Sequence record: NZ_CP023806.1
DNA: 10,647 nt
Origin: a plasmid
Strand: one strand, 5' to 3'
Shown: piece by piece, positions 1,421 through 2,110 of the stretch
How positions within the stretch are numbered: the stretch's first letter is position 1
Layout of the letters: every line of letters starts with the position of its first letter
Translations under genes and position numbers: made by a program
Notes under the pieces: generated by a model
What the model was told of the DNA's origin: nothing
What the model saw: only the letters and a program-made list of their open reading frames with translations
Databases searched by the model: none

Positions 1421-1699
1421 CAATTACCAACTTTCCATAAAGAAGAAATCAATTTCTATAGACTCTATCTTTCTAAGAATAAAAAATATGTTTAGGTGAT
1501 CAAATGACTATAAGTAAAGTAATCAAACAAAAAAGAATAGAAAAACAACTAACTCAAGAAGATTTAGCTGAAATGCTTTTAGTATCTAAAAAAACCATTT
1601 CTAATTGGGAAAATGGTCGAACAATACCAGATACAGAAAATTTAATTCAGTTTGCTAAGTTATTTGATTTATCACTAGACAATATTTTGTTAGGAGAAG

Positions 1700-1725
1700 A
1701 AAAAATTATGGTAAAAAATTATGGT
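1700..1725 (+). repeat. Perfect 13-bp tandem duplication (aaaaaattatggt x2, plus partial third copy aaaaaat at 1726-1732) causing a +1 frameshift
   Basis: 1700-1712 and 1713-1725 are identical. The unit length is not a multiple of 3. The unit contains an A6 homopolymer, which is slippage-prone. Confidence 0.9.
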
Positions 1726-1867
1726 AAAAAATCATACAAAAACACTAATACTATTATTTCATTTTGTAATTTTTTTAAGTTTAGTTTTCACCTTAATTCA
1801 GTCCGGATTCTTTTATTTTAGCCATTCAATTGCCACTTGGTTATTAATATTTTTTCTAAGTTTACTA

Positions 1868-1897
1868 TTAATAATTAATACATTAATAATTAATACT
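1868..1897 (+). repeat. 15-bp in-frame tandem repeat (ttaataattaataca / ttaataattaatact) encoding LIINT-LIINT in the TM segment
   Basis: Direct comparison of 1868-1882 with 1883-1897 gives 14 of 15 identical bases. Confidence 0.7.
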
Positions 1898-2110
1898 TTA
1901 ATTATTATCTTTAATAAACATAGAAACTTATTTCTTCACAGCATATTTCCAATTGTTTTATTAATTTTTCTATACTTTATATAAAAAGATAGAACTATTT
2001 AGTAAGATAAAAAAGTAGCTAATTGTAATTTTCGTCTAAAACTCAAAACTAGTAAAAATAACTTTATTGTGTTATTTTTATTTATAAATTATGAAAAAGG
2101 ACCTTTCGAA

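Follow-up and report, generated by a model that had tools for sequence, protein, structure and literature searches.

The plasmid region studied here holds a gene of the XRE family whose reading frame is split by a perfect 13-bp tandem repeat. Is this repeat a switch that turns a membrane-anchored regulator on and off, or is it a stable allele of a gene that was changed by slippage? And what does the split gene still encode?

The window, that is, the whole stretch of DNA analysed, is a complete circular Rep3-type mobilizable Enterococcus faecium plasmid of 10,647 bp. Its circularity is seen in the related contig L037, where position 10647 is joined directly to position 1. The plasmid belongs to a family of small, Rep3-type, MOBP-mobilizable plasmids that is very common in E. 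faecium, from clinical as well as food sources. The backbone runs from Rep3 through a DUF536 protein to the HTH gene and then to variable cargo. The cargo of the window comprises ISEfa4 (TnpA/TnpB) between an FtsW/RodA-family gene and a C47 staphopain-like peptidase; beyond it come MobC/relaxase and the iteron origin. The iterons of 22 bp (4.4 copies, 98% identical, 10484-10578) and a 12-bp repeat (3.6 copies, 10401-10443) lie just upstream of repB, and because they do so on a circular plasmid, we read both as a Rep3-type origin. Related contigs have a called 28-aa type I toxin of the Fst type (PF13955, weak match), and its counterpart in the window is a short hydrophobic ORF (…MFELFICPLLVGVCISVFSYWLNNRNKK) at about 9916-10002 on the minus strand.

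Structure and origin of the 13-bp repeat

The 13-bp unit AAAAAATTATGGT (aaaaaattatggt in lower case) forms a perfect tandem pair on the plus strand. Copy 1 (1700-1712) holds ATG 1708, an in-frame codon of the HTH ORF that encodes Met69 of the intact protein. Copy 2 (1713-1725), the extra one, holds ATG 1721 and opens the membrane ORF in the +1 frame. Then comes a partial third copy, AAAAAAT (1726-1732, plus strand), a 7-bp microhomology already present in single-copy alleles. Tandem Repeats Finder (TRF) reports period 13 and 100% matches, and it counts 2.5 copies because a 7-bp direct repeat with a 13-nt period pre-exists in the single-copy alleles. The linker of these alleles reads AAAAAATTATGGTAAAAAAT (GAAG-AAAAAAT-TATGGT-AAAAAAT-CAT), with two AAAAAAT heptamers 13 nt apart.

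Slipped-strand mispairing between the two heptamers during replication would duplicate the 13-nt unit, and this is probably how the duplication arose. In the LR134113 lineage the heptamer pair is imperfect (AAAAAGT...AAAAAAT), and no duplicated allele was seen on that lineage.

The HTH ORF (1504-1821, 105 aa) and the membrane ORF (1721-1984, 87 aa) lie in separate frames and the two 13-bp copies are perfect, as originally predicted; the sequence, TRF and the ORF list agree on this. Since 13 is not divisible by 3, the reading frame depends on the number of copies, as it does in contingency loci. With a period of 10-20, the window holds 3 perfect tandem duplications, versus 0.03 per dinucleotide-preserving shuffle (30 of 1000 shuffles had any). 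Two of the 3 are inside the HTH gene, namely the 13-mer and a 15-mer at 1867-1896.

An assembly artefact was rejected, as the two-copy allele is present in 7 complete PLSDB plasmids and in hundreds of independent assemblies. Programmed ribosomal frameshifting was also rejected. In the HTH frame, A AAA AAT (1712-1718) forms a slippery heptamer of the -1 type; on reading the sequence, a -1 shift enters the wrong frame, +1 being needed.

Products of the two-copy allele

The HTH gene has a Shine-Dalgarno sequence, AGGTGA, at 1494-1499 on the plus strand, which forms a duplex of -13.2 kcal/mol with the 16S 3' end. The +13 shift stops the HTH frame at 1821 and yields a soluble 105-aa HTH protein that has no anchor. 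Residues 1-72 of this product (1504-1821, plus strand) are native and comprise the whole XRE HTH domain and the linker, and residues 73-105 form an unrelated, out-of-frame tail of 33 aa. In terms of family, Pfam finds HTH_3 at residues 7-59 (E=1.6e-17, 63.7 bits, cut-off 23), and HTH_19 matches the N-terminal domain as well (E=9.8e-15). Hydropathy detects no hydrophobic segment in the 105-aa product. A DNA-binding domain and membrane segments in one polypeptide, as expected of a transmembrane regulator, are found only in the single-copy alleles of relatives; the window allele has lost this combination.

The membrane part is reduced to the stranded ORF at 1721-1984 on the plus strand, which corresponds to residues 69-155 of the intact protein and contains three hydrophobic blocks. 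It matches no Pfam family, and it overlaps the 105-aa ORF by 101 nt in the other frame. The anti-SD duplex is -2.9 kcal/mol at ATG 1721, -8.4 at ATG 1708 and -13.2 at ATG 1504. Judging from these values, the 87-aa ORF has almost no ribosome-binding site and is likely to be poorly translatable. Gene callers report it on 1 contig, versus 322 for the 105-aa ORF. A functional start of its own would have argued for two genes, and ATG 1721 does not look like one when set against the HTH start.

The gene had been described as inactivated. This is too strong, because the HTH domain stays whole in the 105-aa product. It is the coupling of the DNA-binding domain to the membrane anchor that is lost, and any predicted effect of this on regulation is conjecture. 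RefSeq lists the 105-aa remnant as an ordinary HTH protein (WP_002302541.1), an annotation that the allele series corrects. For studies of a small transmembrane XRE regulator on bacteriocin, peptidase or SEDS plasmids, the two-copy allele provides a natural “anchor-less” variant.

The single-copy gene and the copy-number series

Deletion of one unit was expected to fuse the two ORFs, and single-copy relatives encode exactly that protein. Over approximately 510 nt spanning the gene, LR135336 (L001) differs from the window only by a 13-bp gap, and CP044268 (L002) by the 13-bp gap and a 15-bp gap; copy 2 is the unit missing from both alignments. The former encodes an uninterrupted 155 aa and the latter 150 aa, with the junction as predicted (...EEKIMVKNHTKT... 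/ ...GEEKIMVKNHTKT...), and RefSeq annotates the fused ORF of each as one gene. The perfect ORF-internal repeat is missing from the wild-type allele and its removal restores the ORF exactly, which is the pattern of a tandem-duplication frameshift. The two ORFs are therefore the halves of one XRE-HTH membrane protein gene. The expected length of about 155 aa is right for the window haplotype, and it becomes 150 aa on the majority haplotype, which has one 15-bp unit.

The fused allele is the norm among relatives. Of 46 PLSDB plasmids with the region, 38 carry one copy and 7 carry two, with 1 ambiguous long-read record (A8 run). Exact-sequence look-ups in a collection of 15 billion proteins find the 105-aa product on 322 contigs, the three main 150-aa forms on 689, 569 and 277, and the 155-aa form on 45. 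Two separately conserved genes without a fused orthologue would have spoken for independent ORFs, and it is the fused orthologues that dominate.

The intact C-terminal half has three hydrophobic blocks by hydropathy (residues 73-102, 98-130 and 131-150). The window-type single-copy allele and the LR134113 lineage differ at 26 nt. Their dN/dS is 0.12 in the HTH part and 0.137 in the membrane part, where 14 synonymous and 9 non-synonymous changes were counted. These ratios point to purifying selection on the fused protein. Furthermore, distant homologues of 131-175 aa in other enterococci likewise have an HTH and hydrophobic segments. From the dN/dS values and this shared layout, the fused state is read as ancestral and the window allele as derived. 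On this evidence the one-copy fused allele is both common and ancestral, and the two-copy allele is a derived frameshift.

A three-copy product of 78 aa, ending ...KNYGKKLW, was predicted and then found as WP_258548331.1. The three perfect units lie at about 3018-3056 of L037 (isolate assembly GCA_003323695.1, QOJV01000001.1), the single assembly with this allele. Apart from the extra unit and a deletion of window positions 1906-5673, this contig is 99.97-100% identical to the window. One, two and three copies encode 155, 105 and 78 aa. The third unit puts a TAA in frame, and with at least three copies the product is the same 78 aa; since all these alleles meet the same stop, only the one-copy state is ON. 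L037 is a 6.9-kb derivative of the window plasmid; with the deletion (junction 3224-3236) it has lost the SEDS gene, ISEfa4 and the end of the membrane ORF.

The two-copy state was found on at least four haplotypes, some of which are perhaps recombinants or chimeric contigs. The first is the reference haplotype. The second is the 1562G (D20G) haplotype, distinguished by one informative SNP in k=31 Logan contigs, whose one-copy twin (L021) has otherwise 0 mismatches in 3289 nt. The third, LR135249-like, is L019 (1386A, 1465T, 1564A, 1595A), a metagenome contig with a single 15-bp unit, where a k=141 assembly ties SNPs 1564A and 1595A to the junction within 119 nt. A fourth haplotype is represented by L014 and L015.

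The 15-bp unit belongs to the second tandem duplication of the gene, ATTAATAATTAATAC x2 (1867-1896, plus strand), which is perfect, in-frame and polymorphic, and lengthens a membrane segment by LIINT. In the majority allele there is one 15-bp unit (150 aa). The two-copy 13-mer alleles examined have two, except L019; the site is unreadable in L015. With L019, all four combinations of the 13-bp and 15-bp indels are seen.

As the duplication is found on several haplotypes, events seem to recur at the 13-bp site, and with the three-copy allele added the site is best described as a recurrent, low-rate slippage hot spot; recombination between mosaic plasmids or chimeric contigs could mimic such recurrence. 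The duplication had been called “recent or reversible”. The variation between 1, 2 and 3 copies on several haplotypes agrees with this, and reversal, we infer, holds in principle only. The three-copy allele and the two-copy state on several haplotypes are new, and we found no description of the 13-bp locus of the HTH gene in the literature searched. Together with the 15-bp in-frame duplication, the series of one, two and three units makes a cheap typing marker.

In JGI metagenome contigs scanned for 1-3 copies, 8 of 8 had a single copy, and none had 2-4 copies. A scan of one genome per species gave no matches. Rare A5 and A7 variants of the linker also speak for an unstable site, although they are mostly in error-prone assemblies. 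AP026637 (A8), CP065530 (A9, another run) and L038 are likely long-read homopolymer errors and were left uncounted, because other genes in these records are also broken. The sole homopolymer variant judged plausible is L039 (A5, Logan). Contig L020 (Logan SRR032871, 1258-1737) has two copies with A5 instead of A6 in the second unit, which gives 159 aa with an IMVK insertion. This in-frame +12 allele comes from an old run and a single contig, and may be an intragenic suppressor or a homopolymer error.

Stability of the allele and role of the regulator

We consider it probable that this is a gene for an XRE transmembrane regulator with a derived slippage frameshift, an occasional toggle by mutation, which separates the DNA-binding domain from its anchor, and not a dedicated high-frequency switch. 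At such a hot spot, slippage would happen at a low rate, the one-copy state alone reads through, and precise loss of a copy could restore the gene. The two-copy allele is heritable and common, and behaves as a stable marker. All five 13.1-kb PLSDB plasmids have two copies, and the listed plasmids of 9934, 11638, 11825 and 7165 bp all have one. The exact 105-aa product has the 15-bp x2 background in 12 of 12 places examined. Its cargo modules include a C47 peptidase, lactococcin-972/ABC, a class II bacteriocin and ParE, and it comes from several countries. Duplicate or multimeric copies of the gene within one assembly agree (L004/L011, L006/L009, L008/L012). The phase-variable ON/OFF switch of the original prediction is not supported in that form, in view of uniform PLSDB lineages, a frameshift product that is inherited stably on 322 contigs and in several cargo contexts, and a single ON state.

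A dedicated switch would expand and contract the 13-nt unit at high frequency, alternating a membrane-anchored ON form with an OFF or soluble form as bet-hedging, and possibly controlling the SEDS gene. Several features fit it: the unit is inside an ORF and has a length not divisible by 3, alleles with 1, 2 and 3 copies all exist, all four allele combinations occur both with SNP 1562 and with the 15-bp indel, and the pneumococcal cap3A, cap8E and tts duplications give a precedent (PMC4243769, PMC11163986). We nevertheless find such a switch unlikely. No PLSDB plasmid lineage mixes copy numbers, the two-copy allele is stable on 322 contigs and 745 index blocks, and 2-3 units are far below classical contingency loci. 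Nor is the series cyclic, since at least three copies stop at the same TAA, and the HTH gene is also found without FtsW. If switching were frequent, the locus would be a rare plasmid case of tandem-duplication phase variation. A stronger form of this idea has a plasmid-borne contingency locus move a transmembrane XRE sensor-regulator, by gain or loss of one unit, back and forth between a form tethered to the membrane and a free HTH form blind to the signal, which would reset the expression of envelope or bacteriocin cargo (e.g. the SEDS gene) in a subpopulation, with the frameshift form positively selected in hospital E. faecium. We regard it as improbable.

The pneumococcal genes are the closest comparison. 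In cap3A, cap8E and tts, a spontaneous tandem duplication turns the gene OFF and its precise loss turns it ON, as far as the work of Waite et al. (2001, 2003) is related in PMC4243769 and PMC11163986. On that account, the likeness is a short ORF-internal duplication that causes a frameshift, whose loss restores the gene, and which needs no long repeat tract. The same account has switching measured in pneumococcus, with many different duplications, whereas here one 13-nt unit with a 7-bp microhomology recurs. The window allele differs also in being a stable lineage marker, with a truncated product that retains a complete domain. Simple-sequence-repeat contingency loci of Neisseria, Haemophilus and Campylobacter are built of homopolymers or 4-7-nt repeats (PMC11868660). 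They share with the present locus an intragenic copy number that sets the frame and polymorphism among close relatives. The present locus differs in its 13-nt unit, its 1-3 copies and its one ON state, and shows no sign of heterogeneity within a clone in the assemblies. We would class it, beside the cap3A-type duplications, as a frameshift allele that slippage produced and that could revert, at a small VNTR-like hot spot.

A different explanation would be a single ancient, neutral, pseudogenising event, spread by homologous recombination between co-resident plasmids, with the odd haplotypes as recombinants or chimeras. The plasmids are plainly mosaics, one backbone being combined with many cargo modules, L014 resembles a recombinant with an LR134113-type allele, and the 1562G case depends on one SNP in short-k assemblies. 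Against this, the three-copy allele represents another, independent event at the 13-bp site, L019 with its single 15-bp unit on the other side would need a conversion tract of less than 270 bp, and the membrane ORF has not decayed. A single event is on balance quite doubtful. Finally, a functional split system, where the cell would produce the 105-aa HTH protein as well as the 87-aa membrane protein and use them as two subunits in the manner of CylR2/CylR1, is highly improbable: both ORFs are intact and an Enterococcus avium homologue of the fused protein adjoins a LanM/mersacidin-like lanthipeptide cluster, yet ATG 1721 is nearly devoid of a Shine-Dalgarno sequence (-2.9 kcal/mol), the 87-aa ORF shares 101 nt with the upstream ORF, in a different frame, and is called on 1 contig versus 322, and the split form is a derived state that is not conserved outside the two-copy allele.

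CylR2/CylR1 of the E. faecalis cytolysin operon are two small proteins from separate ORFs, an XRE HTH protein and a membrane protein, respectively. The split arrangement of the window similarly has two separate ORFs. It differs in its reversed gene order, in being a recent frameshift and in a membrane ORF that has no translation signals. CylR2 is absent from the PDB sequence matches at E<=0.001.

We return to the slippage-frameshifted transmembrane regulator as the preferred reading and consider its intact form. Searches of NCBIfam, PADLOC and PDB gave only generic XRE matches. By architecture, the intact protein resembles transmembrane one-component regulators such as BcrR and BreG, with an N-terminal DNA-binding domain, then membrane segments and no large extracellular domain, and its gene adjoins cell-envelope or bacteriocin-type cargo. 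BcrR is about 200 aa long. The intact protein is smaller (150 aa) and is likened to it by architecture only, and the window allele differs from both in having no membrane part at all. BcrR of Enterococcus senses bacitracin and BreG acts in bacteriocin synthesis; both have no extracellular domains and adjoin their target operons (PMC10269533, PMC3968067). The gene of the E. avium homologue is divergently oriented to the lanthipeptide cluster beside it, and several plasmids of the family carry bacteriocin modules. From these two observations, our guess is that the intact regulator may sense envelope-active peptides.

The gene downstream (2111-3292, plus strand) belongs to the FtsW/RodA/SpoVE (SEDS) family (Pfam FTSW_RODA_SPOVE, E=2.7e-82), with NCBIfam rodA/ftsW matches below the equivalog cut-offs. 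Such scores suggest that a small mobilizable plasmid here carries an accessory paralogue of divergent sequence. Could it confer immunity to lipid II-targeting bacteriocins? In the window, a consensus scan detected neither a promoter nor a terminator separating the HTH gene from the SEDS gene. The proposed link between regulator and SEDS gene is not obligate: the HTH gene accompanies the Rep3/DUF536 backbone, and occurs without FtsW in the 7165-bp plasmids and in L037.

As for possible operators, the palindrome AGAAATCAATTTCT (1444-1457, plus strand) stands where the promoter of the HTH gene is presumed to lie and is a candidate operator by inference only. The pattern AGAAAN4TTTCT has 2 exact matches in the plasmid (1444-1457 and 1922-1935), versus 0.13 expected. 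The first palindrome is kept in the divergent LR134113 lineage. The second (1922-1940, plus strand) is not conserved there (L040), and the idea of paired operators was set aside on this ground. It lies beside a rearrangement hot spot at 1922-1945, where the proteins of many relatives diverge after ...NKHRNLFL through IS256-family insertions, deletions and new cargo junctions. An 18-nt stretch at 1922-1945 is 89% complementary to one in the promoter region (1442-1459), and each of the two holds one of the palindromes.

A 10-bp direct repeat, TTAATTCAGT, was also noticed in the gene (1642-1651 and 1793-1802), its copies being 138 nt apart in single-copy alleles. The protein P0032 (104 aa, 5 contigs) looks like an in-frame deletion between these repeats, which would make it a further product of slippage or deletion in the gene.

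In the remaining cargo, ISEfa4 (IS200/IS605 family) occupies 3521-5090 on the minus strand, with TnpA at 4686-5090 and TnpB at 3521-4678. It lies between the SEDS gene and the peptidase module, and its presence varies among similar plasmids. Positions 5719-6873 encode the cysteine peptidase, a secreted C47 (staphopain-like) enzyme that has a Staphopain_pro domain. Overlapping its gene is a 147-aa ORF (6846-7289) with a lipoprotein-type signal (…LTSC…) and no family match. By analogy with staphostatin, it could be an inhibitor or immunity partner.

A second XRE-type ORF, of similar size (153 aa), was found at 10124-10585 on the minus strand of L005, a two-copy plasmid, in divergent orientation to a neighbouring module with a lactococcin-972-family bacteriocin and an ABC transporter. 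On this hint, small XRE regulators may repeatedly accompany bacteriocin cargo in the plasmid family.
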